Source: Candidatus Marinacidobacterales bacterium
Lineage (GTDB): Bacteria > Acidobacteriota > Vicinamibacteria > Marinacidobacterales > DATDRI01
Direction of reading: 5' to 3'
Assembly (NCBI GenBank): GCA_965226495.1
Contig: OZ245365.1
Coordinates: 1,216,001 to 1,280,000, forward strand
Length of the DNA: 64,000 bases
Shown here: in pieces, positions 9,723 through 28,871 of the stretch
How the letters are laid out: every line of letters begins with the position of its first letter
How positions within the stretch are numbered: position 1 is the stretch's first letter
Notes under the pieces: generated by a model
What the model was told of the DNA's origin: nothing
Database searches by the model: none
Seen by the model: the letters and a program-made list of their open reading frames with translations, nothing else
Translations under genes and position numbers: made by a program

Positions 9723-9915
9723 CTAGAAGTCGGGGCACTCTTCGATGGGAAGAGTCCGGTTTTGAGGGCAGGTTTCATCAAGCTCCTTGTTCTTCCCTGG
9801 AAGAGTGAGGAGCTTTTTCTATTTGCCTCCTCGCTCTCCCAGCCTGCCGCGAGACCCCACTCCGCTCGTCCGGATCTTCAACGGCGCCTCGGGCGCCAGA
9901 TTGGGAGGTCTACTG

Positions 9916-12342
9916 ATGAGGGCGAAACTCTTACTTGCGGTCGTTTTTTGGACTTTCGGTGTCGCAACACCGTTCGCAGCACAACAAACGGTTGGCACCA
10001 TCACCGTGCGCATCCAGGATCCGCAGGGCGCGATGATCGCCCGTGCCAAGGTATCTCTTTTTACGCGCGACAACCGCGTGCGGCTTTCCGTGCTCACCGA
10101 TGAGTCGGGTGAGTATCGGTTCGAGCGTCTTCTCGCCGGTGAGTACTTGATCACTGCGGAGGCGCCCGGGTTTTCTGGAGCCGAAGTGCGAACTCTTACT
10201 TTACCCAGTGGCGACTCGGTGATCGCCGACTTCAAGCTGAAACTGGCCGCTCTTCAGGAGAACGTCGTGGTCACCGCGTCCGGCAGCGCACAGACCGTCG
10301 ACCAGGTTTCTAAGGCCATCACGGTCGTGGAAGATAAAGAGATCGAGGCTCGTAATGAGTACTCGATCCCGGAGGTTCTCCGCACTGTTCCCGGTTTACG
10401 TGTTCAGCAGCTGGGCGGCCCGGGGGCTTTCGTTTCCATCAAGATGCGAGGGTTGCGCAGCGAGGATACCGCGGTCTTATTGGACGGCTTCCGGCTTCGA
10501 GACGCCGCGTCGACGCAGGGAGATGCTTCCGCGTTGATGGAGAGCTTGGTGGTCACCGATCTGGATCGGATCGAAGTGTTGCGCGGCTCCGGTTCGTCGC
10601 TCTATGGGACGAACGCAGTAGGCGGAGTCATCAATATAGTGACCGCCGAGGGGGGTGGACCCGCCCGGGGAAGCTTGCTTCTCGAGGGCGGCTCGCTCGA
10701 TCTTTTTCGCGGGCGAGCGCGGATCGCGGGAGGGTTCAAAGAAGACCGCGTGACCTATAGCATCGGCCTTACGCACCTGAACGTCGGTGAAGGGTTGGAC
10801 GGTGACGACGACGTGAAGAACACCAGTGTGCAAGGACAGATTCGCTGGCGCCCCTCCGCTACGGCGACGCTTTCCGCGAGGCTCTACACCGCAGACTCCT
10901 TCTCCAAGATCAACGAAACGCCACAATCAATTGGATCGATTCCGGCCACAGGAATCATAGAGGCGGTACCGCTCTCGCCATCGGAGGTCAACCGCTTCGA
11001 GGGTGGCGTACCGTCCTCGGAGCTCGTTCTCGGAGACGCGAATGTCATTCCTTCCGCGAACGATCCGGACAACACTCGACACGCGCGGTTCGTCTCGGCG
11101 GCGGTGAGCTTTGAGCAGAGGCCTTCTGAGACCTTTAGCTACTCTCTGGCCTATCATGGCTTGATGACCGACCGCGCGTTCAGAGACGGACCGCAAGGTG
11201 TATCGTTTGAGCCGAGCCGCGACACGCTCTCGGAATTCGACGGCCGCGTCCACACGTTTTACGCACTGGCTAATCTCGACCTCGGTTCCTGGAATTTCCT
11301 CACCGCCGGGTACGAGCTCGAGAGCGAAACCTTTATTAACTCCTCGTTCCCTGAGAATCCCGCAGAGAACTCTTCAGTCGATGTGACGCAAAGCAGCAAT
11401 ACGTTTTTCGTACAAGATCAGATGAATTTCCTTGAAGGCTCGCTACAGATCTCCGGTGCATTTCGCGCCCAGTTTTTCTCCCTGGATGACCCCATCTTCG
11501 CCCCGGTAGAGAACGCGCCCTATGCCGGAGTGCAAGTAGAAGATCCACCGCGTGCCCTGACCGGAGACGGTTCCCTCGCGTATTTCTTTCGGAGCTCGGG
11601 CACCAAGCTGCGAGCACACGTTGGGAATGCGTACCGCGCACCTTCGTTGTTCGAGCGGTTCGGCACCTTTTTCAGCACATTCGGATACTCAGTTTTCGGG
11701 GATCCGCGGCTCGAGCCGGAGCGCTCGCTTGGTTACGATATCGGAGTGGACCAGGCGATGTTTCGCCAACGGTTGAACCTTTCGGCGACCTTCTTCGACA
11801 CCCGACTCCAGCAAGTCATCGTTTTCGACTTCACCGGCGCCATTGATCCTGTCACCGATCCGTTCGGGCGCTTCGGCGGTTACCGCAGAGTCGACGGCGG
11901 AAACGCCAGAGGGCTGGAGCTGAGCTCTGCGGCGACTCCCACCGAGTCCCTACACCTTGCTGTCGCCTACACTTACACCGACACCGAGCCGCCCGCCGCA
12001 GGTGACGAGGCGCTAACGCAGGCGTTCGTCATTCCGAAGCATCAGTTTTCGCTGGTAGCGACGCAGTATCTCGCTCGCGATCTTTACGTGAACTTCGAGC
12101 TCAACGCGTCCGATAGCTACTTCGCGCCGGTTTTCGACCCCGTCACGTTCGTGAGCCGGACTTACCGCTTCGGAGGCATCCTGAAGGCCGACTTGGGTGC
12201 TAGCTACACGTGGCCGCTCGCGGGAGCCAAGGGCGTCCGGCTCTTCGGCAAAGTAGAGAATCTCTTCGACCGAGAGAACTTCGAAAGCGGTTTTCGCACG
12301 CCAGGCCGAACGGTTGTGGCCGGGGCGGCCTTCCAGTTCTAG
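9916..12342 (+). CDS. btuB: TonB-dependent corrinoid receptor with N-terminal carboxypeptidase-like domain
   Basis: Signal peptide, VVVTAS box, plug RIEVLRG..S.LYG..A.GGVINIVT, C-terminal ENLFD...PGR...F; under a B12 riboswitch; RBS ggagg. Confidence 0.85.
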   Translation: MRAKLLLAVVFWTFGVATPFAAQQTVGTITVRIQDPQGAMIARAKVSLFTRDNRVRLSVLTDESGEYRFERLLAGEYLITAEAPGFSGAEVRTLTLPSGDSVIADFKLKLAALQENVVVTASGSAQTVDQVSKAITVVEDKEIEARNEYSIPEVLRTVPGLRVQQLGGPGAFVSIKMRGLRSEDTAVLLDGFRLRDAASTQGDASALMESLVVTDLDRIEVLRGSGSSLYGTNAVGGVINIVTAEGGGPARGSLLLEGGSLDLFRGRARIAGGFKEDRVTYSIGLTHLNVGEGLDGDDDVKNTSVQGQIRWRPSATATLSARLYTADSFSKINETPQSIGSIPATGIIEAVPLSPSEVNRFEGGVPSSELVLGDANVIPSANDPDNTRHARFVSAAVSFEQRPSETFSYSLAYHGLMTDRAFRDGPQGVSFEPSRDTLSEFDGRVHTFYALANLDLGSWNFLTAGYELESETFINSSFPENPAENSSVDVTQSSNTFFVQDQMNFLEGSLQISGAFRAQFFSLDDPIFAPVENAPYAGVQVEDPPRALTGDGSLAYFFRSSGTKLRAHVGNAYRAPSLFERFGTFFSTFGYSVFGDPRLEPERSLGYDIGVDQAMFRQRLNLSATFFDTRLQQVIVFDFTGAIDPVTDPFGRFGGYRRVDGGNARGLELSSAATPTESLHLAVAYTYTDTEPPAAGDEALTQAFVIPKHQFSLVATQYLARDLYVNFELNASDSYFAPVFDPVTFVSRTYRFGGILKADLGASYTWPLAGAKGVRLFGKVENLFDRENFESGFRTPGRTVVAGAAFQF

Positions 12343-12360
12343 CCGGGACCGGAGAAGAAA

Positions 12361-13269
12361 ATGTCCCGCCTTCGAATATGTCGGACCGCAACCTCGGTCG
12401 GGTTGATCGTGCTCATGGCCGGGGTGATTGGGGCTAGGGGTGAGCCGAAGATCCCCCGAGCCATCATTTCGCTCTCGCCCAGCGTCACGGAGATTCTCCA
12501 TGGCGTCGGCGCGTTCGACCGGGTGGTAGCGGTTTCCAGCTTTTGCGAGTATCCGCCACAGGCAAAAGAGCTGCCGAGGGTTGGGGGTTGGCAAAACACG
12601 AGTTTGGAGCGGGTCGCATCGCTCGAGCCGGATTTGGTGATTATGACCGATGCCCAGGCGCCGTTCGTCCACGACCACCTCCAGGCGCTTGGCATCCGGA
12701 GCTTGGTCGTTGGCAGTCAGTCTCTCGAGGACGTTTTTTCTTCCATAACGGAGATCGGCCGTGCAGTGGGGCGGCGCGCGGAAGGTGAGCGACTCGCTGA
12801 GCGGGTTCGAGCTGAGCTTGAAGACGTTCGCCGACGGACCGCTGATCTACCTCGACCGCGGGTTCTTTGTGTCGTCGATCGCCTACCGGGGACGCTCCGG
12901 GACTTATACGTGGCGACCAAAGGAAGCTATTTTGCCGATCTCATCGTGATTGCAGGCGGTCAGCCGCTGTTGCCAACCGCGAGCCACAACTACGTCAAGA
13001 TAACCGCCGAAGCCGTGGTATCGCTGAACCCCGATGTGATTCTCGACATGGTGCAAGCCGTGGCCGCTCCGTTGACCCTCATCGCGGGAAATACGAGCCT
13101 CGCAGAAGATCCGAGCGGCGTGTGGCGAGCGCTCGGCGGTGTCCGCGCCGTGGAGGAGGGGCGAGTCTATCCGTTGCGGGATGCGCAACTGATCCATCCC
13201 TCCCAGTTTGTCGGAAAAACAGCGCGCCGGATTGCCGAGTTTCTGCACCCCGAAGCGTTCGAAGACTGA
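12361..13269 (+). CDS. btuF: Cobalamin ABC transporter substrate-binding protein
   Basis: IISLSPSVTEIL, CEYP, E....L.PDLV helical-backbone fold; operon context. Confidence 0.85.
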   Translation: MSRLRICRTATSVGLIVLMAGVIGARGEPKIPRAIISLSPSVTEILHGVGAFDRVVAVSSFCEYPPQAKELPRVGGWQNTSLERVASLEPDLVIMTDAQAPFVHDHLQALGIRSLVVGSQSLEDVFSSITEIGRAVGRRAEGERLAERVRAELEDVRRRTADLPRPRVLCVVDRLPGTLRDLYVATKGSYFADLIVIAGGQPLLPTASHNYVKITAEAVVSLNPDVILDMVQAVAAPLTLIAGNTSLAEDPSGVWRALGGVRAVEEGRVYPLRDAQLIHPSQFVGKTARRIAEFLHPEAFED

Positions 13270-13277
13270 GCCTAAAC

Positions 13278-14069
13278 GTGGACCTGCCATTGTTGCCATT
13301 GTTAGAAGCCTGCAACGTTCGTTTCGGCTACTCGCGAAGCGTCGAAGCGGTGCGTGGCGTTTCGCTGTCAATCCGGCAGGGAAGCTTTTGTGCGCTCATC
13401 GGACCCAACGGGTCGGGAAAATCAACCCTGTTACGTCTGCTGGCCGGCATCCTGGCGCCTCGCGAGGGCGAGATCCGCTTCGAAGGAAGGTCACTTGCGG
13501 CGGTCGATCGTCGTCGCTTGGCGACCCGCGTCGGGTACGTCTCCCAATCGCACAGCACGGTCTTTCCCTTTACGGCTCTCGAAGTCGTGCTGACCGGGCG
13601 CAGCCCTTACACTCCTTGGTTCCGTTTCGAGAACGAGGCCGACCGAGAAGTGGCCCGTCGAGCCCTGGCCACGGTGGATGCTCTGGACCTGGAGTCGCGT
13701 CCAGTCACAGAGCTCTCGGCCGGAGAGCGGCAACTGGTGGCGGTAGCGCGGGTCCTCGCACAGGACGCCGATTGCATGCTGCTCGATGAGCCCTCCGCGT
13801 CGCTGGATCTGAAACACCGCGCACGTCTCATCGCCACGCTGCGGCGTCTCCGCGACGAACGAGGCCTGACGACGGTGATGGTTACTCACGACCTCCAACT
13901 GTTAGATCCGGGACTCGACCATGCATTCGCCATGCGTGCCGGCGAGATCGTGGCGGAGGGCAGCCCTTCCGCGGTGTTGCACCAGAGTAAGTTGGTGGAG
14001 ATCTACGGGGACCCACGTGTCCGTTCGCGGCAGATGGACGGACGCACATTCGTATGGTCGGAGTGGTGA
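13278..14069 (+). CDS. btuD: Cobalamin ABC transporter ATPase
   Basis: GPNGSGKST, LSAGERQ, LLDEP, VTHDL; start inferred at GTG 13278. Confidence 0.85.
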   Translation: MDLPLLPLLEACNVRFGYSRSVEAVRGVSLSIRQGSFCALIGPNGSGKSTLLRLLAGILAPREGEIRFEGRSLAAVDRRRLATRVGYVSQSHSTVFPFTALEVVLTGRSPYTPWFRFENEADREVARRALATVDALDLESRPVTELSAGERQLVAVARVLAQDADCMLLDEPSASLDLKHRARLIATLRRLRDERGLTTVMVTHDLQLLDPGLDHAFAMRAGEIVAEGSPSAVLHQSKLVEIYGDPRVRSRQMDGRTFVWSEW

Positions 14070-20642: not shown

Positions 20643-21053
20643 CTACAGTAGCAGCGGTATCCCACTTCTCTTGGCCGCTTTCGTAAGGCTGCGATCGAGT
20701 GTCGCCAGCGGCAGACCTTGTCTTTGCGCCAGCTCGAGATAGCACGCGTCGTAAGCACTCACGCCGTGTTCGCGAGCGACGGGCCCGAGTCGTTTCAGAA
20801 TGGCTCGACCGTCGGATTCGATGACGATGGGTAGCGCTAGGATGAGCTCGACTGCCCTTTGGGAGTCGGCGAGGCTGATCCGCCCTCTCCGCTCGGCCAC
20901 GGCCAGCACATTTGCCATCTCTACGGGCCACAACGTTGGTACTAAAGCTTCGTCCGATCTCAATCTCTTGAAGATATTCGTTGCTCGAGCGCTCGTTTTG
21001 TCCTCAAGAAACCAGGCAGCGGACACCGAGCAGTCCAGCACGAAACGGTTCAA
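20643..21053 (-). CDS. vapC: PIN-domain toxin VapC
   Basis: FVLDCS, E.ANVL, SAYDA.YLELA, LATLD. Confidence 0.9.
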   Translation of the reverse strand: MNRFVLDCSVSAAWFLEDKTSARATNIFKRLRSDEALVPTLWPVEMANVLAVAERRGRISLADSQRAVELILALPIVIESDGRAILKRLGPVAREHGVSAYDACYLELAQRQGLPLATLDRSLTKAAKRSGIPLLL

Positions 21054-21295
21054 AACCGCCGTCCTTCTTCGCGCAGCTTGCGCAGGCTCTCCCGACCTTT
21101 CTTGGTGCGGCGCCGGAGTTCTTCCACTTCTTGGATGATGTCTTCCACTCGCTCTCTGTGGGTTTCTTGAACGGGGACGAGCACGGCGACCGGAACACCG
21201 TGTTTCGTGATGGTCACTCGTTCTCCCTGACGCACCAGCTCTAGCAGTTGAGAAAGCTTCGTTTTCGCTTCAAAAGCGCCGATCTCAAGGGCCAT
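21050..21295 (-). CDS. Phd/YefM-family antitoxin
   Basis: IGAFEAKTKLSQLL..V..GE.VTITKHG.PVAVLVP; 4-bp overlap with the toxin. Confidence 0.9.
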   Translation of the reverse strand: MALEIGAFEAKTKLSQLLELVRQGERVTITKHGVPVAVLVPVQETHRERVEDIIQEVEELRRRTKKGRESLRKLREEGRRF

Positions 21296-21320
21296 GGCAA
21301 GTCTCTCAAACCAGTCTAAA

Positions 21321-21330
21321 CAACTAGTTG
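21321..21330. promoter_or_regulatory. Candidate TA autoregulatory operator
   Basis: Perfect palindrome CAACTAGTTG 25 bp upstream of the antitoxin start. Confidence 0.35.
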
Positions 21331-21446
21331 ATTTTAGCAACGTCCAAGGTCGCACGCAACCCCTCGTTCTTGGGAAGAGACGAATTTCCCGCCCCGAATC
21401 CTCCCTCCCAACCAGGTGCCACCCACTTGGTGAACCTTCGGTCGTG

Positions 21447-22383: not shown

Positions 22384-22408
22384 GAGGGAGGAGCCGGTCT
22401 CCTCCCTC
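22384..22408. terminator. Hairpin between convergent genes
   Basis: gagggaggag-ccggt-ctcctccctc. Confidence 0.6.
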
Positions 22409-23835
22409 TACCGCCTAATTGCGCAGCCCGGAGTGACTCCATCCACGAGCTCGGAATCGCGGACCACGAACACTCCCCCCACCAACACGTGCACGAACCC
22501 CTCGGAGTACTGAGCGGGTTCTTCGAACGTCGCTCGATCGATGACGCTTTCGGGGTCGAAGATGGCTAAGTCCGCGTCGGCTCCCACGCGGATCCGCCCC
22601 TTGTTCTTGAACACGGGCACCGAATCTTCCAGGCGCCGCGCCGGCATGAGGCTCATCTTCCGCAGAGCCTCCATAAGCGTCAATATTTTTCTAGTCCTAA
22701 CGTAGCGCCCGAGTATTCGCGCAAACGTGCCGGCACCCCGCGGGTGAGCCCGGCCGTTGACGAAGGGCACACCGTCGCTGGCGATCATGACCAAAGGATG
22801 ACCCACCGCCAAGTCGACCATCTCCTCGGGAATGATATGGCCGATGATCATTCCGCCCCTCTCCCGATAGAGCGCAAAACTCTCCTCGTCCAGCCGTTCG
22901 CCGGTTGCGACCCACTCGATGTCTCCATAATCGGCTTCGACTCTCTTCCGCCAACCGTCATTGAAGATGGCCGATTCGATGGCCGTCGAAACCGCGGTAT
23001 AAGGGTAAACCTCAGTGGTGACATCGACGCCGCGACCTCGAGCTCCCTCGATCATATCGAGCGCGGTCGGCACTTGGCGAAGACCACTGCTCCCAATATG
23101 AACGATATGAACCGAAGCGCCCAGTGAGGCAGCGTTCGCGATCATCTCTTGGACGGCTTCGACACTGCTTCCCGGCTCGACGGCGCCGGCGTGCCGGATG
23201 TGAACGAAGTTGGTCACCCCATGGTTTTGAGCCACCTGGAACATGCGAATGATCTCTCCTCGACTTGCCGCCGGGGTGTACTGGATTCCGTAGCCCACAC
23301 CGAGAGCGCCTTCGTCCAGGCCCCTTTGGATAAGCCTTCCGATCTCGCCGATCTCGTCCGAGGTTGCGGTTCGGTACGAGACGTCCTGACCTTTTTCAGA
23401 GCGGCCAGGTAAGACGTTCGCTCGCGCCTCGCTGTGACTGACGGTCGCGCCGTAATGTAGCAAGGCCTGGCCTGCCCGCGTCTGGTACCATTCCAACACC
23501 GGAAAGGCTCCACCTTCCATCTCTAGAGCGGTAGTGACGCCATCCATTGCTTGGAACCGGTTGCTTTCGATATTTTGCCCGTGGGCGTGCAGGTCGATGA
23601 AGCCGGGCGCCACCACCAATCCCCGAACGTCTACGAACTCTTCGCCTTCGAGTGGTTGAGCGGAAATTGCAGAGATCTTTCCATCACGAAGACCCACGTA
23701 ACGAATCGCGTCGAGCCCTGATTCGGGATCCATCACCCGGCCTCCTGCCAGCACGAGATCGAGTGCGGGGGGTTCCTGAATGGCTTCGGAGACGAAAGCG
23801 AAGGCGAGGAACAGGAGGAAGCAGTATTTCGACAT
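22408..23835 (-). CDS. D-aminoacylase-like amidohydrolase, secreted
   Basis: Signal peptide; PGFIDLHAH, E.YPY.A, ASDG, HPRGAGTF.R, KGRI.VGADAD. Confidence 0.85.
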   Translation of the reverse strand: MSKYCFLLFLAFAFVSEAIQEPPALDLVLAGGRVMDPESGLDAIRYVGLRDGKISAISAQPLEGEEFVDVRGLVVAPGFIDLHAHGQNIESNRFQAMDGVTTALEMEGGAFPVLEWYQTRAGQALLHYGATVSHSEARANVLPGRSEKGQDVSYRTATSDEIGEIGRLIQRGLDEGALGVGYGIQYTPAASRGEIIRMFQVAQNHGVTNFVHIRHAGAVEPGSSVEAVQEMIANAASLGASVHIVHIGSSGLRQVPTALDMIEGARGRGVDVTTEVYPYTAVSTAIESAIFNDGWRKRVEADYGDIEWVATGERLDEESFALYRERGGMIIGHIIPEEMVDLAVGHPLVMIASDGVPFVNGRAHPRGAGTFARILGRYVRTRKILTLMEALRKMSLMPARRLEDSVPVFKNKGRIRVGADADLAIFDPESVIDRATFEEPAQYSEGFVHVLVGGVFVVRDSELVDGVTPGCAIRR

Positions 23836-23840
23836 CACGG

Positions 23841-24944
23841 TTATCCCCAAAAACTCGTCGCGGTATCGACGAGGAGTTTTAGTTTCGATTTCTGGTCTTC
23901 CACCGAGATGCGGTTCCCCACGACAGACGTGGAGAATCCGCATTGAGGTGAGATGGCGAGGCGCCCAGCGGGCACGAATTTGCTGGCCTCGCGAATGCGG
24001 GCTTCGAGATCTTCCTGTTTTTCCAGTGCCGGAAGCTTGGTATTGACGAGACCGAGCACCACCGTCTTGTCGTCGGGTACGTGCCTCAAAGCTGCGAAGG
24101 AACCGGAGCGCTCATCGTCATACTCGAGAAGAAGCCGCTGTGCTTGGATAGAGCCGAAAAGTTGCTTCGCAATGGGCTCATAGTCACCTTCCGACAGCCA
24201 CCGGCTGTTCTGGTTGCCTCTTCAGAGGTGAAACCCGAACGTGACGTCGGCAAAATCCCCTATCACCGCGTTCTCGAGCTCGACGCCTCGAGCGATCCAG
24301 TACTCTAGACCCCCGCCACGCTCCTCATAGAAAGGCCGGGTTCTCGGGTCGAGGAGCTGCGTGTAGTGCGGGGCGTCGAGCTGAATGTAAGTAGCTCCCA
24401 GCCGAACGAGCTCGGCCACCTCTTCCTGCAAGATCTCGACGACATCTCCCAAGAACGCATCGACGTTCGAGTAAACCTTGGCAGAGTGCTCGGACCAAAA
24501 GTTGGTAAAGAGCGTCGGGCTGGGAAGGGTAACCTTCGGGATGCGCGTAGTCCGGCTGCGGAGGTAAGTGAATTCGTCCGCGGAAAGATGGCGGTGGCGT
24601 TTGAGCTTCGACACGACACCGATAGAAGGCGGGCGCTCGACGGACCAATCACCGAGCTTCTGGCTGTGCCATTTACCCCAGAGGAAGACGTCGATATCGT
24701 GCGCGGCGAAACCCTCGACCGCGTCGGTCATCTGGCTTTGAAAGGAAAGTCTTCGCATCTCGCCGTCGGTGACGACGTCCAGTCCTGCCTCTTCTTGCAG
24801 GTCGATTGCGGCGTCCACCGCGTGGTCTTCTATATCTTTGAAGCTCGACGGGCCGATGCGGCCCGCGGCGAGATCCTCACGAGCGCGAAGAAGCTCTGGT
24901 GGGCGAAGGAGACTTCCGATGACGTCGGTGTGTGAAGTGATCAT
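23841..24944 (-). CDS. Single-barrel cobalamin-independent methionine synthase-like (MetE C-terminal family) protein with in-frame TGA, candidate selenoprotein (367 aa, U241)
   Basis: GSLLRP, GLDVVTDGE.RR, YIQLDAP, HL[TGA]RGN, LEYDD.RSG, LGLV.TK, SPQCGF; both ORF halves in one frame; hairpin just 3' of the TGA. Confidence 0.8.
24191..24213 (-). promoter_or_regulatory. Putative bacterial SECIS hairpin
   Basis: mRNA CC(A)G(A)ACAGCC-GGU-GGCUGU-C-GG; G-led loop starts 19 nt after the UGA at 24222-24224. Confidence 0.6.
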
Positions 24945-24963: not shown

Positions 24964-25713
24964 TCACTTTTTCTGTTTCAATTGACCGGCCACCGCCTCG
25001 GTGGCCCGCTTCACGGCTTCCGGGTCTCCGAGGTAGAAACTTCGGATCGCCGTCAAATCATCTTCTAGCTCGTAAACGAGAGGGATGCCAGTGGGGATGT
25101 TGAGCCCGGCGATTTCCTCATCCGAGACATGGTCTAGATACTTCACCAGCGCGCGAAGGCTGTTGCCGTGCGCGGAAATAATGACTCGCTGACCGGCTCG
25201 CACGCTCGGAGCGATCGTATCGTGCCAGTAGGGGAGAAATCGCTCGACCGTGTCCTTGAGGCACTCCGTCAAGGGAAGCTCATCAGCCGAGAGATCGGCG
25301 TACCGAGGATCTTTGCCCGGGAAGCGCTCGTCGTCAGGAGTTAGCGCCGGCGGCGGCACGTCGTAGCTGCGGCGCCACACATTGGTCTGTTCGATCCCGT
25401 GCTTTTCTGCAGTCTCCGTCTTGTTGAGACCCTGAAGCGCGCCATAGTGACGCTCGTTGAGCCGCCAGCTGCGGTGCACCGGGATCCACATGAGGTCCAT
25501 CTCTTCCAGGGCAAGCCACAACGTTTTGATGGCTCGCTTCTGCAGAGATGTAAAGGCGACATCGAAAACGTAGCCTTCGTTCCGCAAGAGCCGTCCGGCT
25601 TCGATCGCCTCCTGAGTGCCCTTCTCCGTCAATCCGACATCCGTCCAGCCGGTGAAGCGGTTTTCCAAGTTCCATGTGCTTTGACCGTGTCGAATGAGGA
25701 CGAGCTCTTTCAT
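24964..25713 (-). CDS. gpmA: 2,3-BPG-dependent phosphoglycerate mutase
   Basis: [41 protein letters not shown]. Confidence 0.97.
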
Positions 25714-26331: not shown

Positions 26332-28764
26332 CTAATACGCTGGCTCGAGATCGCCGTCCTCGGTTCGCTCCCAAGGGGTCCAAGCCAGAGCCAGTCGGCT
26401 GACGGCAATATCGGACTTCCGAGGTCGAATCAGAATCTCTTCCAACTCTAGCGCCGCGGGGTCGGGGAGCTCTCGAAGCGCTTCGACCTCTTCCTCGAAG
26501 GCCTCCTCCAGCTCCTGCAGTTTCATCTGTTGACGCTCGACTTCTTTTTCCGCCCGCGAGATGTCTCCTTTTTCTCGCGCCGCCCGGCCCGCGGAGCGAG
26601 CCGTAGTCGTGGCGCGGCCCACGTTGCCAGTGCTCGTCACCTTGCGGCCGAGGAGAGCTCCAAGAAGCGTCGCGCCGAAAGAGACTGCGGCCTGGTATTT
26701 CCGTTCGGTGTATTGCCCCTTCTCTCTGTCCACGCGTTCTTCGGCCTTCCGGATCCTTTCTTGGAGGCGAGCCAGCTTGGGGGCGTAGCGCTTTCGGAGT
26801 TTCTCGATTTCCTTATCTCTTTTCTCGCGGAGGGCCTGCGATAGTCGCGTTCTAAACGCAGCCTGATCCTCGCCGACCCGCGACATCGTTCGCAGCTCTG
26901 CGCTCTTCCACAAGGTGAGCGTTCGGTTCTGGTAGAAGTAATTGCGAAGGGACGTGCTCCAGCGGATGTAGTTCTTGGTTTGCATGGCGGTGGCAGGTAG
27001 CTTCGCGAAGCGCACACCCTCGACGCCCGTTTTCTGAAGAGAAGGTTGCTGGCCTTTTTGCAGTGCCCCCTGGTCCCAATCCAAATCGGACTTGCTGCTT
27101 GAAAGCGGGAGGAGCGCCGAGAGTGTCTCCCAGTGGTCGATTTTGCTCCGAGCGCTGACGTAATGGAGGCGCGTGGTTGCCCGCAAGGCCGGCCGATAGA
27201 TGAGACGGCTCGCTTCTGCGGTGCCCTCGCGGAGAGGGAGGAACCCCTGGGGGATTTCGCGCGGGACAATGGGACTCTCGGCCCGAACGGTCCCCGGGCG
27301 TTGTTTTCGCGGTTTTGGTTCGCCGGCCAGCTCGGCTTTCTTGCGCCGCGCCATCAGCGCTTCGATCTGAGTCCTGGTTAGAGGTCCCCTCAAGTACGAC
27401 AGTGCCCAGCGCGTCTGAAAAAGAGTGGGCTCGTCTTCGTGCACGTTGTGCATCAGGAACACCCTCTTTCCTAAACCAGCCAAAAGCTGTTCCGTCTTCC
27501 TCCGATCGAATCGTTTGCCACCCGATGCCCCTTCGAGCCCATTGATGACGCGTTCTTTGTCACGCTCCGTCTGAAGCCTTCCGAGGAACCAGGTTCCGAT
27601 GTTCGATAGTCCCTTGTAGTCCAGATCGACGGGGTTCTGGGTCGCAAGAAGCACGCCGAGACCGTACGCTCGCGCCTGCTTGAGAAGGGTGAGCATGGGG
27701 AGCTTGGAGGGTGGAACGGCGGTCGGCGGGAAGTAGCCGAAGATCTCGTCCATATAAAGAATGGCTCGGAGGCTACCCGTCCCAGGGAGGGTCCTCATCC
27801 ATGCGATCACTTCGTTCAGCAGCATGCTTACGAAAAACATACGTTCCGCGTCCGACAAGTGGGCGATCGAAAAGATCGAATGCCGTGGGTGTCCCTCCGA
27901 CGTGTAGAGCAGACGATGTATGTCGAGCGGCTCGCCTTTTCTCCAGACCTCGAAGGCCGGTGAAGCCAGAAGGTTGTTGAGCTGCATCGCGAGCTCGCGC
28001 CGATCTTTCGAGGGGAAGAATGACTCCAGATCCATCACCCCCATTTTTTCGAACGGCGGCTCCTGGATGCTGCGGATGAGGCTCGCGACATCCATGTCAC
28101 GGCCTTGGCGCCACGCTTCTTCGAGGAGCTTCGACAAGAGAATATGCTCGCGGCTGCGGATCGGGTCGGCTTTCGCGCCGGTCAGCCCGAGCAAGCCGAG
28201 CAGGCCCGAGACGGCGGTGAGGATGCGTTCCCGAAGCGCATCGGAATCCTTCACTTGGTCCGCGGGTGGGGCGGTGAAGGAACGGAGCATCGAAAGGGGC
28301 AGGCCCGCCTCGCTGCCGGGAGTGTAGATGGCGAGGTCGACGGAGCCGCGGAATTTCTTGATGCGATTTCGATTTTGCCCCCAGTCCGCTAGGCCGCTCT
28401 GCCATTTCTCGGCCGTCTGCGCGGCGTAGGTATCTGGGTCGACTCCCTTGCGGCTGGCCTCGCTCTCGTCGATCCAGGGCCTGAAGTCGGCAGGTCGAAG
28501 CTTGGGGAAACTGAGTAACAGATTACCCATGTCGCCCTTGGGGTCGATGATGAGGGCGGGGATACCGTCGATCGCGGCTTCTTCGAGGAGCACCACCGAT
28601 AACCCGGTCTTGCCGCTGCCGGTCATGCCCACGATAAGGCCATGGGTCGTTAGGTCCTTGGTGTCATAAAGTAGTGGGAGGAGCGGTTCGTCGCTCGACG
28701 CCTTTTCCTCCACGTCGTAACGGCGACCCAGGTAGAACGCACCCAACTTTTCTAAATCGTTCAC
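26332..28764 (-). CDS. HerA/FtsK-like P-loop ATPase (DUF87-type) with C-terminal coiled coil
   Basis: GMTGSGKT, IIDPKGD, YMDEIFG, LKQARA.G, ATQNP.DLDYK; GTG start with RBS ggagg. Confidence 0.85.
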   Translation of the reverse strand: MNDLEKLGAFYLGRRYDVEEKASSDEPLLPLLYDTKDLTTHGLIVGMTGSGKTGLSVVLLEEAAIDGIPALIIDPKGDMGNLLLSFPKLRPADFRPWIDESEASRKGVDPDTYAAQTAEKWQSGLADWGQNRNRIKKFRGSVDLAIYTPGSEAGLPLSMLRSFTAPPADQVKDSDALRERILTAVSGLLGLLGLTGAKADPIRSREHILLSKLLEEAWRQGRDMDVASLIRSIQEPPFEKMGVMDLESFFPSKDRRELAMQLNNLLASPAFEVWRKGEPLDIHRLLYTSEGHPRHSIFSIAHLSDAERMFFVSMLLNEVIAWMRTLPGTGSLRAILYMDEIFGYFPPTAVPPSKLPMLTLLKQARAYGLGVLLATQNPVDLDYKGLSNIGTWFLGRLQTERDKERVINGLEGASGGKRFDRRKTEQLLAGLGKRVFLMHNVHEDEPTLFQTRWALSYLRGPLTRTQIEALMARRKKAELAGEPKPRKQRPGTVRAESPIVPREIPQGFLPLREGTAEASRLIYRPALRATTRLHYVSARSKIDHWETLSALLPLSSSKSDLDWDQGALQKGQQPSLQKTGVEGVRFAKLPATAMQTKNYIRWSTSLRNYFYQNRTLTLWKSAELRTMSRVGEDQAAFRTRLSQALREKRDKEIEKLRKRYAPKLARLQERIRKAEERVDREKGQYTERKYQAAVSFGATLLGALLGRKVTSTGNVGRATTTARSAGRAAREKGDISRAEKEVERQQMKLQELEEAFEEEVEALRELPDPAALELEEILIRPRKSDIAVSRLALAWTPWERTEDGDLEPAY

Positions 28765-28871
28765 CGATACCTCCGGACGACAGGCAGGTACCATACTCCG
28801 ATCTGCGGCTCGATTTGTAGTGCCTGGTGATGTAGTCTTCCTCTGCAACGGGGGAGGTCCAAACTCCAGTC

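Follow-up and report, generated by a model that had tools for sequence, protein, structure and literature searches.

The window analyzed here, a stretch of 64,000 nucleotides from the genome of a Candidatus Marinacidobacterales bacterium (Acidobacteriota), contains on its minus strand a gene for a protein related to the cobalamin-independent methionine synthase MetE, whose frame runs from the ATG at 24944 to the TAA at 23843-23841, spans 367 codons and has a single interruption, the TGA at 24224-24222. The features considered below are as follows.

23841..24944, minus strand: candidate MetE-like selenoprotein gene, complete; 367 codons including one in-frame TGA, stop codon TAA at 23841-23843
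24228..24230, minus strand: codon of His239, first predicted zinc ligand (HxC/U), invariant in aligned homologs; its counterpart in Candida Met6 (3pph) is the His in the motif HFC
24222..24224, minus strand: in-frame TGA, codon 241, proposed selenocysteine (Sec) codon in the place of the Cys of the HxC zinc-ligand motif
24194..24208, minus strand: proposed core of a bacterial SECIS element, with a 6-bp stem ACAGCC/GGCUGU, triloop GGU and 19 nt from UGA to loop, within codons N246-S251
24123..24125, minus strand: codon of Glu274 (LLLEYDDERSG), proposed third zinc ligand, invariant in aligned homologs; its counterpart in 3pph is the Glu in the motif IEF
23940..23942, minus strand: codon of Cys335 (SPQCGF), proposed fourth zinc ligand, invariant in aligned homologs and aligned with NPDCG in 3pph

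The initial annotation treated the open reading frames 24222-24944 and 23841-24089 as one frame split by a single TGA, and both indeed belong to the same 367-codon frame, with the residues FGFHL-TGA-RGNQNSRW around the interruption. The tight spacing to the neighboring genes that it described is also correct: gpmA (24964-25713, minus strand, Pfam His_Phos_1) lies 19 nt upstream, and an amidohydrolase gene starts with the ATG at 23835, 5 nt past the stop codon. The open frame is the sole point in favor of an altered genetic code, in which TGA is a sense codon throughout. TGA ends 891 of the 2123 open frames of at least 400 codons in this genome, as well as the neighboring gpmA, and selA, selB and the gene for MetH have no internal TGA. 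This usage of stop codons, which agrees with the earlier view of TGA as a normal stop here, refutes an altered code and leaves it a negligible probability.

The same TGA is found at the identical alignment column in 12 genomes of several families, namely in 10 of the 61 nearest genomes (62-100% identity) and in two more from a sample of 401 genomes of the phylum. A metagenome scan by a degenerate pattern reported at least 119 stretches, and TGA occupies this column in 78 of the 80 contigs that were fetched; since the pattern selected for TGA and its flanking residues, the scan gives no proportions of Sec and Cys forms. Contigs from independent sequencing runs also retain the TGA, including a strain variant with six nearby differences, which speaks to the request of the initial annotation for a check of the TGA in sequencing data. 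The frame stays open for 126 codons past the TGA in the window gene and for 125-128 codons in 69 of the 71 loci that reach a stop. Purifying selection downstream of the TGA, another proposed check, is reflected in the NG86 estimate of dN/dS, 0.154 downstream versus 0.119 upstream (146 of 600 sampled pairs were unsaturated). Judging from this comparison of homologs, translation evidently continues beyond UGA-241. A lone TGA in an otherwise intact gene does resemble a fresh nonsense mutation, and one orthologue (G018) carries an additional TAG, but a pseudogene or an error of sequencing or assembly is at odds with the presence of the same TGA in 12 genomes of several families and 78 metagenome contigs, with the low dN/dS of the downstream part and with the agreement between independent runs. 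This reading is hardly credible and, as far as sequence comparison allows, already refuted.

The protein matches the Pfam family PF01717 (Meth_synt_2) with 72.2 bits against a cut-off of 21, its residues 6-361 corresponding to profile positions 3-321 of 324, and it aligns with the structure PDB 1ypx (E 8e-51). An AF2 model of the 367-aa protein (pLDDT 85.5, pTM 0.88) was compared with known structures by Foldseek and matched the barrels of MetE with TMq 0.72-0.76 (0.76 for 1xpg) and 1ypx with TMt 0.86. The predicted structure is a single (beta-alpha)8 barrel, as in the MetE catalytic-domain family, of which the protein represents the 'methionine synthase II' YxjG/1YPX-like branch. The nearest named models are PRK06520 (subfamily; 243 vs 313 bits) and PRK06233 (equivalog; 220.1 vs 576 bits), although the scores are below both curated NCBIfam cut-offs. 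The single-domain 'cobalamin-independent methionine synthase II family' described by these models, with 1YPX of Listeria monocytogenes and, presumably, YxjG and YxjH of Bacillus subtilis as members, resembles the window protein in length (about 370 aa), in fold and in the motifs H-x-C-R-G-N, LEYDDERSG and SPQCGF, and differs from it in having Cys where the window protein has UGA.

The zinc ligands of E. coli MetE are H641, C643, E665 and C726 (PMC7857596). This His/Cys/Glu/Cys set aligns with H239, U241, E274 and C335 of the window protein, and the TGA stands in the column of the HxC ligand of MetE, as the initial annotation had proposed. In the AF2 model, Glu274 closes the strand 270-274 and Cys335 comes after the strand 329-333. 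S11, E62 and D190 are likewise invariant in the aligned homologs. Their partners in the alignment with Candida Met6 are the motifs GS, HGE and VDE, and they may correspond to the homocysteine-binding residues S433, E484 and D599 of E. coli MetE. The GS, DGE and QxD motifs, presumably the homocysteine contacts of MetE in E. coli numbering, are likewise invariant in homologs of the window protein.

MetE of E. coli and T. maritima and Met6 of Candida share with the window protein the catalytic barrel and the aligned zinc ligands, Sec probably replacing C643. In contrast to them, the window protein, with 367 aa instead of the about 750 aa of the two-domain MetE, has no N-terminal folate-binding barrel, and it falls outside the MetE equivalog, with only 51 bits against the cut-off of 929.95 for TIGR01371 (MetE proper) and a match confined to profile positions 428-733; the use of methyl-tetrahydrofolate therefore cannot be assumed. 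The core folate-independent methionine synthases MesA-MesD are single MetE-like barrels that have the same zinc ligands and take the methyl group from sources different from methyl-folate (Price et al. 2021, PMC7857596), and the passages of that paper available to us report no Sec in them. The MesD structure 3RPD (ACIAD3523) is matched weakly (E 2.6e-10) and over residues 42-338 only, which does not place the window protein in MesD.

Full-length homologs with Cys at the TGA column, 64-69% identical to the window protein, number in the thousands in the protein database. The codon of the Cys forms at this column is TGC, and C241 is invariant in all 40 sampled Cys homologs. The TGA/Cys pairing that the earlier note had suggested looking for is found at exactly the column of codon 241. 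A phylogenetic tree of 63 Sec and 46 Cys rows requires at least 10 changes between the two forms, which intermingle on it as is usual for Sec/Cys exchange.

Gene callers split or truncate the gene in all data sets examined, and the protein-database matches include no full-length Sec form and no full-length protein of more than 69% identity, whereas related genomes do contain genes that are 87% identical. Both observations would fit termination at UGA-241, with a 240-residue product alone or with a 126-residue C-terminal piece that is made separately and reassembled. Against such a split gene, the junction and its surroundings offer no start codon, codon 242 being AGA or CGN; the break falls directly after the zinc-ligand beta-strand, inside what the AF2 model predicts to be a single barrel; and the junction aligns with an invariant Cys. 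Moreover, the frame and the length are retained in 69 of 71 loci, though a split gene need not keep frame, and a SECIS-like hairpin is conserved just downstream. We consider termination at UGA-241 highly improbable, and continuous translation of the 367-codon frame remains the preferred reading.

The stem ACAGCC/GGCUGU with a G-led loop, described in the initial annotation, is present at 24208-24194, exactly 19 nt separating the UGA from the loop. Folded alone, it has an energy of -7.9 kcal/mol (z -1.9), which is equalled by 9 of 200 shuffled sequences, and when 66 nt of context are folded together, shuffled sequences do about as well (z -0.12). Judged from the window sequence alone, the hairpin thus exceeds chance expectation only weakly, and what argues for it is the comparison of about 90 homologous genes, not the folding of a single sequence. 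The published model of bacterial SECIS elements, in the portion of the article available to us, has an apical loop of 3-9 nt, an upper stem of 4-16 bp, G in the first two loop positions, a distance of 16-37 nt from UGA to loop and a minimum free energy of -7.5 kcal/mol or lower (PMC13188914). The window hairpin satisfies these constraints (3-nt loop, 6 bp, G at loop positions 1 and 2, 19 nt, -7.9 kcal/mol); the majority variant among the homologs has -13.0 kcal/mol, and in one Sec form (G002) the hairpin reaches only -5.7 kcal/mol, which fails the energy term.

Examination of synonymous sites revealed that codons 246-250 have the lowest diversity among the 362 five-codon windows of the gene, with H/Hexp of 0.28, or 0.34 when the two classes of Ser codons are split, against a median of 0.88-0.90. 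In particular, Arg248 is encoded by CGG in 64 of 75 sequences and by CGC in none, though these genes use CGC more than any other Arg codon; the CGG codon places G at position 2 of the loop. The stem pairing is retained in 91.2% of 532 cells (76 sequences), and the changes are mostly to wobble pairs. Covariation is modest, with double changes in two of the seven pairs (five cells), including pair 18-30, which has switched from C-G to A-U in three sequences. On the question of conservation and covariation raised with the initial annotation, the hairpin is therefore conserved at synonymous sites and shows some compensatory change. Part of the nucleotide conservation reflects protein constraint, since the peptide S-R-W-L is invariant in the Cys homologs as well; similarly, Ser247 is AGC in all seven Cys forms examined, and its codon thus says little about a SECIS element. 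As a very small control, the two nearest Cys orthologues with DNA sequence are still able to form a hairpin of 4-5 bp with a loop GCU.

The selD gene and two genes of the formate dehydrogenase type in the genome that contains the window, used as controls, have hairpins with loops AGU, GUC and GGUCU that start 18, 20 and 19 nt past their UGA codons, respectively. An Rfam scan of 24100-24300 found no SECIS family and produced only a chance snoRNA match (E 4.9), as expected for a hairpin of 15 nt. A strict genome-wide scan (TGA followed by a stem of at least 5 bp with an NGT triloop at +18 to +23, within an open frame) was rejected as a SECIS finder: its 41 candidates looked, apart from the MetE-like gene, mostly like out-of-frame noise, and it missed selD, whose stem has only four contiguous pairs.

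The genome contains the complete machinery for Sec, which the initial annotation had proposed to look for: selA (570 bits), selB (378 bits), selD (333 bits), itself interrupted by an in-frame TGA at the G-U-xxK site known for this gene, and a tRNA-Sec that has the anticodon UCA (70.9 bits). The selA gene is also present in all 11 other TGA-bearing genomes; its presence in 180 of the 201 genomes of the class means that this co-occurrence does not discriminate.

Since the inserted residue is indistinguishable from sequence data, UGA-241 might be read through as Cys, Trp or another residue, by a near-cognate tRNA, a suppressor or a tRNA-Sec charged with Ser or Cys, and no selenium would then be involved. 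The base after UGA is C in at least 90% of 76 sequences, and C in this position is a weak termination context in bacteria. In addition, ARAGORN calls a second tRNA-SeC 2.4 kb from selC. We rejected it as a Cys- or Ser-inserting suppressor: it duplicates the 3' half of selC, joined to an unrelated and poorly pairing 5' half, and scores 45.6 bits against a gathering score of 47, so it is a partial copy of selC and not a distinct tRNA. Read-through without Sec is also hard to reconcile with a hairpin whose SECIS features and spacing are as in selD and the formate dehydrogenase genes, with the frequent use of TGA as a true stop in the genome, and with the fact that Cys or Trp could be encoded by a one-base change without the cost of a stop. 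We regard such read-through as improbable.

The above analysis makes it likely, with good confidence, that the gene encodes a genuine selenoprotein, in which UGA-241 is read as Sec by means of SelB and the hairpin, Sec taking the place of Cys in the HxC motif. In terms of the enzyme, and as far as the comparison of sequences can indicate Sec insertion, a MetE-like protein very probably carries Sec instead of one of its zinc-holding cysteines. In the proposed mechanism, a short hairpin within the coding sequence, of 5-8 bp with the apical loop GGU and starting 13-14 nt past the UGA, would recruit SelB, and SelB would bring Sec-tRNA(Sec) to decode UGA-241. His239, Sec241, Glu274 and Cys335 would thus coordinate the catalytic zinc, the binding of Sec to zinc being predicted from the aligned ligands. 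By analogy with MetE, this zinc would be expected to activate homocysteine or a related amino-acid thiol, at its thiol (or selenol) group, so that a methyl group can be transferred to it from some donor; both the substrate and the methyl-transfer role are suggested by this analogy, and family membership suggests a thiol-alkylating, non-redox use of Sec. The zinc-site cysteines of MetE are reported targets of S-thiolation, and YxjG is listed as a target as well, with the site unspecified in the part of the source available to us (PMC4360819). One may speculate that the benefit of Sec lies in tuning the zinc site, or in shielding a residue there whose MetE counterpart is known to undergo oxidative S-thiolation.

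Known bacterial selenoproteins are overwhelmingly thiol/redox enzymes or enzymes with Sec on redox metals (Mo/W, Ni). In formate dehydrogenase, a redox enzyme, Sec is a ligand of Mo or W. In [NiFeSe] hydrogenase, it is a ligand of Ni, as stated in the accessible part of PMC13582414. Both resemble the proposed window enzyme in that Sec replaces a metal-ligand Cys and that a bacterial SECIS element lies just 3' of the UGA; they differ in using redox metals, whereas the predicted metal of the window enzyme is zinc, which would act as a Lewis acid in alkyl transfer. Selenoproteins related to methyl transfer have been listed previously, namely arsenite methyltransferase and methylated-DNA-protein-cysteine methyltransferase (PMC13188914, available portion). 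They are similar to the window enzyme in a non-classical use of Sec that is not obviously that of an oxidoreductase, and dissimilar in having unrelated folds. Sec in these two methyltransferases is a substrate-binding or methyl-accepting residue and not a ligand of catalytic zinc.

In agreement with the initial annotation, which placed the protein outside the classic selenoprotein families, no MetE-like or PF01717 selenoprotein was found in the accessible portions of PMC2398784, PMC13188914, PMC12013277, PMC13326102, PMC9402790, PMC9312934 and Haft and Gwadz (10.1101/2022.07.06.499078), whose supplementary tables, or BSepDB, could list one. In our assessment, the MetE-like Sec enzyme represents a new family of selenoproteins, remarkable in that Sec would serve as a ligand of zinc. 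It is somewhat more doubtful, though on balance we favor it, that this is the first natural enzyme family with Sec as a ligand of a catalytic non-redox zinc, a Zn-selenolate in a MetE-type alkyltransferase that is widespread and has been repeatedly exchanged with Cys forms. A form of BtuF with CxxU is given in the consulted part of a 2026 selenoprotein review; the btuF-like gene of the window (12361-13269) was rejected as a selenoprotein gene, as its frame is free of TGA and ends normally.

The canonical methionine synthase of the genome is MetH, which is present. The gpmA and amidohydrolase neighbors of the MetE-like gene are conserved within the genus only. Recurrent neighbors in the metagenome loci are a convergent gene for a TauE/SafE-family membrane protein (34 loci), a PEMT/ICMT-like methyltransferase (21), an isochorismatase-family protein (10), UbiD (10) and a PLP enzyme (8). 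No corrinoid protein, MesX (DUF1852) or selenium-metabolism gene was detected among the recurrent neighbor clusters, of which six representatives were scanned, and MesX is not found beside the MetE-like gene of the window either; we therefore assign no function from gene context. A metatranscriptome run (X19) was rejected as evidence of expression or read-through, its single 158-nt contig covering 24777-24934 and DNA being possible in such libraries.

If Sec does reside on a MetE-type catalytic zinc, it would widen the chemistry for which selenium is used, with selenium tuning or protecting a Lewis-acid zinc center, and part of the B12-independent methylation of sulfur and selenium amino acids in these bacteria would depend on the selenium supply. 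The natural pair of Sec and Cys forms, with many orthologues of each, lets enzymologists measure the effect of Zn-Se on thiol activation and on sensitivity to oxidants. The putative Sec family, frequent in metagenomes from soil and sea and apparently widespread in Acidobacteriota, has been missed by annotation pipelines and selenoprotein catalogues; the pipelines miss it because gene callers split or truncate the gene and the protein matches contain no full-length Sec form.

The gene encoding a MetE-like (methionine synthase) protein contains an in-frame TGA at codon 241, the proposed selenocysteine (Sec) position U241, followed by a candidate SECIS hairpin within the coding sequence. The coordinates and counts that the initial annotation gave for the frame, the TGA, the neighbor spacing and the hairpin are all correct. 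The features are:

24944-23841, minus strand: MetE-like gene, from ATG at 24944 to TAA at 23843-23841, a single frame of 367 codons
24224-24222, minus strand: TGA of codon 241, the sole interruption, in the context FGFHL-TGA-RGNQNSRW
24208-24194, minus strand: hairpin ACAGCC/GGCUGU with loop GGU, 19 nt between TGA and loop
24964-25713, minus strand: upstream neighbor gpmA (Pfam His_Phos_1), its own stop a TGA, 19 nt from the MetE-like ATG
22408-23835: downstream neighbor, amidohydrolase with signal peptide (Amidohydro_3), starting 5 nt past the MetE-like stop

The Sec reading of the initial annotation implies that TGA should alternate with Cys codons in homologs, and such pairing was found. 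Full-length orthologs with TGA (Sec forms) occur in 10 of the 61 nearest genomes (62-100% identity), with TGA present exactly once, in the codon-241 column, and the remaining full-length homologs among the matches listed have TGC there. A sample of 201 genomes of the class yielded no additional TGA forms; a phylum sample of 401 genomes yielded two more (in genomes G482 and G322) plus an additional Cys form. When a metagenome collection was searched with a degenerate DNA pattern encoding G-x-H-x-TGA-R-G-N-Q, at least 119 stretches matched, the chance expectation by our own rough arithmetic being a handful; among the matches listed, 78 of 80 loci are homologs with TGA in frame at the same column and two are chance matches. 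The frame continues after TGA for 126 codons in 58 of the 71 loci reaching a stop (125-128 codons in 69), and is under purifying selection, with dN/dS (Nei-Gojobori; 146 unsaturated of 600 sampled pairs) of 0.154 downstream of the TGA (codons 242-367) vs 0.119 upstream of it (codons 1-240). The TGA is also retained in contigs of other public sequencing runs, two of which are possibly the source of the assembly; one such contig, from a strain variant, has six differences close by, but its TGA is unchanged. Comparison of these sequences indicates that the TGA is a conserved codon and not a lesion.

Full-length Cys homologs number thousands in the protein database, but none exceeds 69% identity to the MetE-like protein, and Sec forms are therefore unrepresented there as whole proteins. 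In a quick FastTree phylogeny containing 63 Sec forms and 46 Cys forms, the two labels interchange at least 10 times, a count that is indicative only; the window's gene falls within a Sec clade of nine members (support 98), and another such clade comprises 37 forms (support 100). Two orthologs show individual peculiarities. That of genome G018 (locus L034) has, besides the conserved TGA, an in-frame TAG at codon 216 (IKG-stop-LDRG), where others have Trp, and is either a recent pseudogene or affected by an assembly error; that of G001 (L028) carries a 9-residue Pro/Ala/Arg-rich repeat-like insertion after residue ~305, absent from other Sec forms.

Judged by its gene content, the organism is able to insert Sec. 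Its genome (G000) encodes SelA (570 bits), SelB (378 bits), SelD (333 bits, itself with an in-frame TGA in TSAG-U-ASK) and one tRNA-Sec (70.9 bits, anticodon UCA), so that the machinery presupposed by the initial annotation is present. The selA gene was found in 11 of 11 other TGA-bearing genomes, but 180 of the 201 class genomes have it as well, and it is therefore necessary but non-discriminating. Since 891 of the 2123 long open frames in G000 terminate in TGA, the code is standard, and the earlier view of TGA as a normal stop, excluding codes 4 and 25, holds. ARAGORN made two tRNA-Sec calls in this genome:

C1:173953-174046: the real selC
C1:176359-176447 (outside the window; locus L019:1493-1589): second call, 2.4 kb downstream of selC

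The second was rejected as a distinct tRNA, because it repeats the selC 3' half almost exactly, from the anticodon loop onward to the 3' end, behind a 5' part unrelated to selC. The arrangement resembles that left by a small element that inserted at selC and duplicated its attachment site. Two formate dehydrogenase (FDH)-alpha-type genes also have TGA in frame at the canonical Sec site (C1:1800365-1803361 and C1:1767197-1767667), the former with a TAG within the matched range, possibly upstream of the true start.

With TGA read through, the protein matches the MetE catalytic domain (PF01717) over residues 6-361 with 72.2 bits (cut-off 21 bits). The closest curated models, both named 'methionine synthase II', are PRK06520 (243 bits vs a cut-off of 313) and PRK06233 (220 vs 576), whereas the two-domain MetE model is far from reached (51 vs 930 bits); the folate-binding domain is absent. 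In alignments to the top solved-structure relative, Listeria 1YPX (E 8e-51), and to Candida Met6, the H-x-C motif falls at H239-L-U241, the Glu ligand at E274 and the second Cys ligand at C335. E. coli MetE binds zinc through H641, C643, E665 and C726 (PMC7857596). In an alignment with 40 Cys homologs, H239, C241, E274 and C335 are invariant, as are S11, E62 and D190. The AlphaFold model (pLDDT 85.5, pTM 0.88) superposes on MetE barrels (TMq 0.72-0.76) and on 1YPX (TMt 0.86), with positions 241, 274 and 335 at or just past the C-terminal ends of strands 235-240, 270-274 and 329-333. The only segment with pLDDT below 50 is residues 246-252 (24191-24209), encoded by the hairpin, where nucleotides may be constrained more by RNA than residues by the fold; S247, W249 and L250 are nonetheless invariant in Cys forms. 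G000 also encodes a full-length MetH (1713.7 bits) and three further short paralogs, all Cys-type; a genome search found no two-domain MetE.

The bacterial SECIS consensus comprises a loop of 3-9 nt with G in its first two positions, a 4-16 bp stem, a UGA-to-loop distance of 16-37 nt, and an MFE of at most -7.5 kcal/mol (PMC13188914, Fig. 2 legend). The hairpin in the window has a 3-nt loop GGU, 6 bp, a distance of 19 nt and an MFE of -7.9 kcal/mol; the commonest variant, GGCAGCC-GGU-GGCUGUC, reaches -13.0 kcal/mol, and that of G002, with the loop opened to AGGUG, -5.7 kcal/mol. Among 75 non-redundant Sec genes, codons 246-250 have the minimum synonymous codon diversity of all 362 five-codon windows (H/Hexp 0.28 vs a median of 0.88-0.90; 0.34 once Ser is split into AGY and TCN). 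The prevailing codons are GGC for Gly246 (51 of 55 sequences), CTG for Leu250 (60 of 75) and CGG for Arg248 (64 of 75); CGC, although the most frequent Arg codon in these genes, never encodes Arg248. The SECIS proposal gains from synonymous-site conservation and from pairing, kept in 91.2% of 532 cells (76 distinct sequences) and in at least 96% of sequences for the four upper pairs; covariation is only modest, stem changes being mostly wobble (pair 18-30: C-G in 62 sequences, A-U in 3, unpaired in 9). Several caveats apply: the SRWL peptide is invariant in Cys forms as well, Ser247 is AGC in 7 of 7 Cys forms readable as DNA, and a 4-5 bp stem closed by the loop GCU is still possible at this site in the closest two Cys orthologs. 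As internal controls, the selD hairpin of G000 has loop AGU starting 18 nt past its UGA, and the FDH-type genes QARL-U-HGPTV and CNRT-U-HAPSV have, respectively, an 8-bp hairpin with loop GUC at 20 nt and a 7-bp hairpin with loop GGUCU at 19 nt. In the MetE-like gene GGU lies at 20 nt, and these controls support the interpretation of its hairpin as a SECIS element.

The best-supported interpretation is that UGA-241 would be recoded by the standard SelB/SECIS route, giving a full-length barrel in which Sec would be one of four zinc ligands; by family membership, a zinc-activated thiolate or selenolate would attack a methyl donor. More than 110 prokaryotic selenoprotein families are known (PMC13188914). 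The terms 'methionine synthase', 'MetE', 'homocysteine' and 'PF01717' are absent from the text and table of that May 2026 selenoproteome review, and from the main texts of the GOS survey, the deep-Sep and BSepDB papers, the Haft and Gwadz preprint and further reviews; full-text literature searches, covering article texts, found no MetE-like selenoprotein. We therefore regard it as a new family among selenoproteins, in other respects of a known kind; what would set it apart is Sec on a catalytic zinc. Under oxidants, a zinc-site cysteine of MetE is known to undergo S-bacillithiolation, S-glutathionylation and S-mycothiolation, and YxjG is also S-bacillithiolated, at an unnamed site (PMC4360819). 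Such S-thiolation is one possible reason for Sec, which might, speculatively, alter this behavior.

No conserved partner gene was found among the recurrent neighbors in metagenome loci or the window's own neighbors; gpmA and the amidohydrolase are conserved only within the genus. In 34 of the metagenome loci L062-L141 a gene for a TauE/SafE-family membrane protein is convergent and directly downstream of the Sec gene, and in 21 a PEMT/ICMT-like membrane methyltransferase follows.

Elsewhere in the window, a vitamin-B12-type uptake cluster spans 9787-14069:

9787-12342: TonB-dependent-receptor-like ORF, by eye only
12361-13269: BtuF-like periplasmic binding protein (PF01497, 107 bits)
within 9787-14069: ABC ATPase-like ORF, by eye only

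A selenoprotein form of BtuF is listed in the 2026 review (PMC13188914), whereas the BtuF-like gene here has no in-frame TGA. Two small overlapping ORFs (101 and 136 aa) at 20643-21355, minus strand, resemble by eye an antitoxin/PIN-domain toxin pair. Finally, an 838-aa ORF at 26332-28848, minus strand, whose Walker A motif reads GMTGSGKTG and whose C-terminal part is long, coiled and charged, may encode a putative HerA/FtsK-like ATPase.
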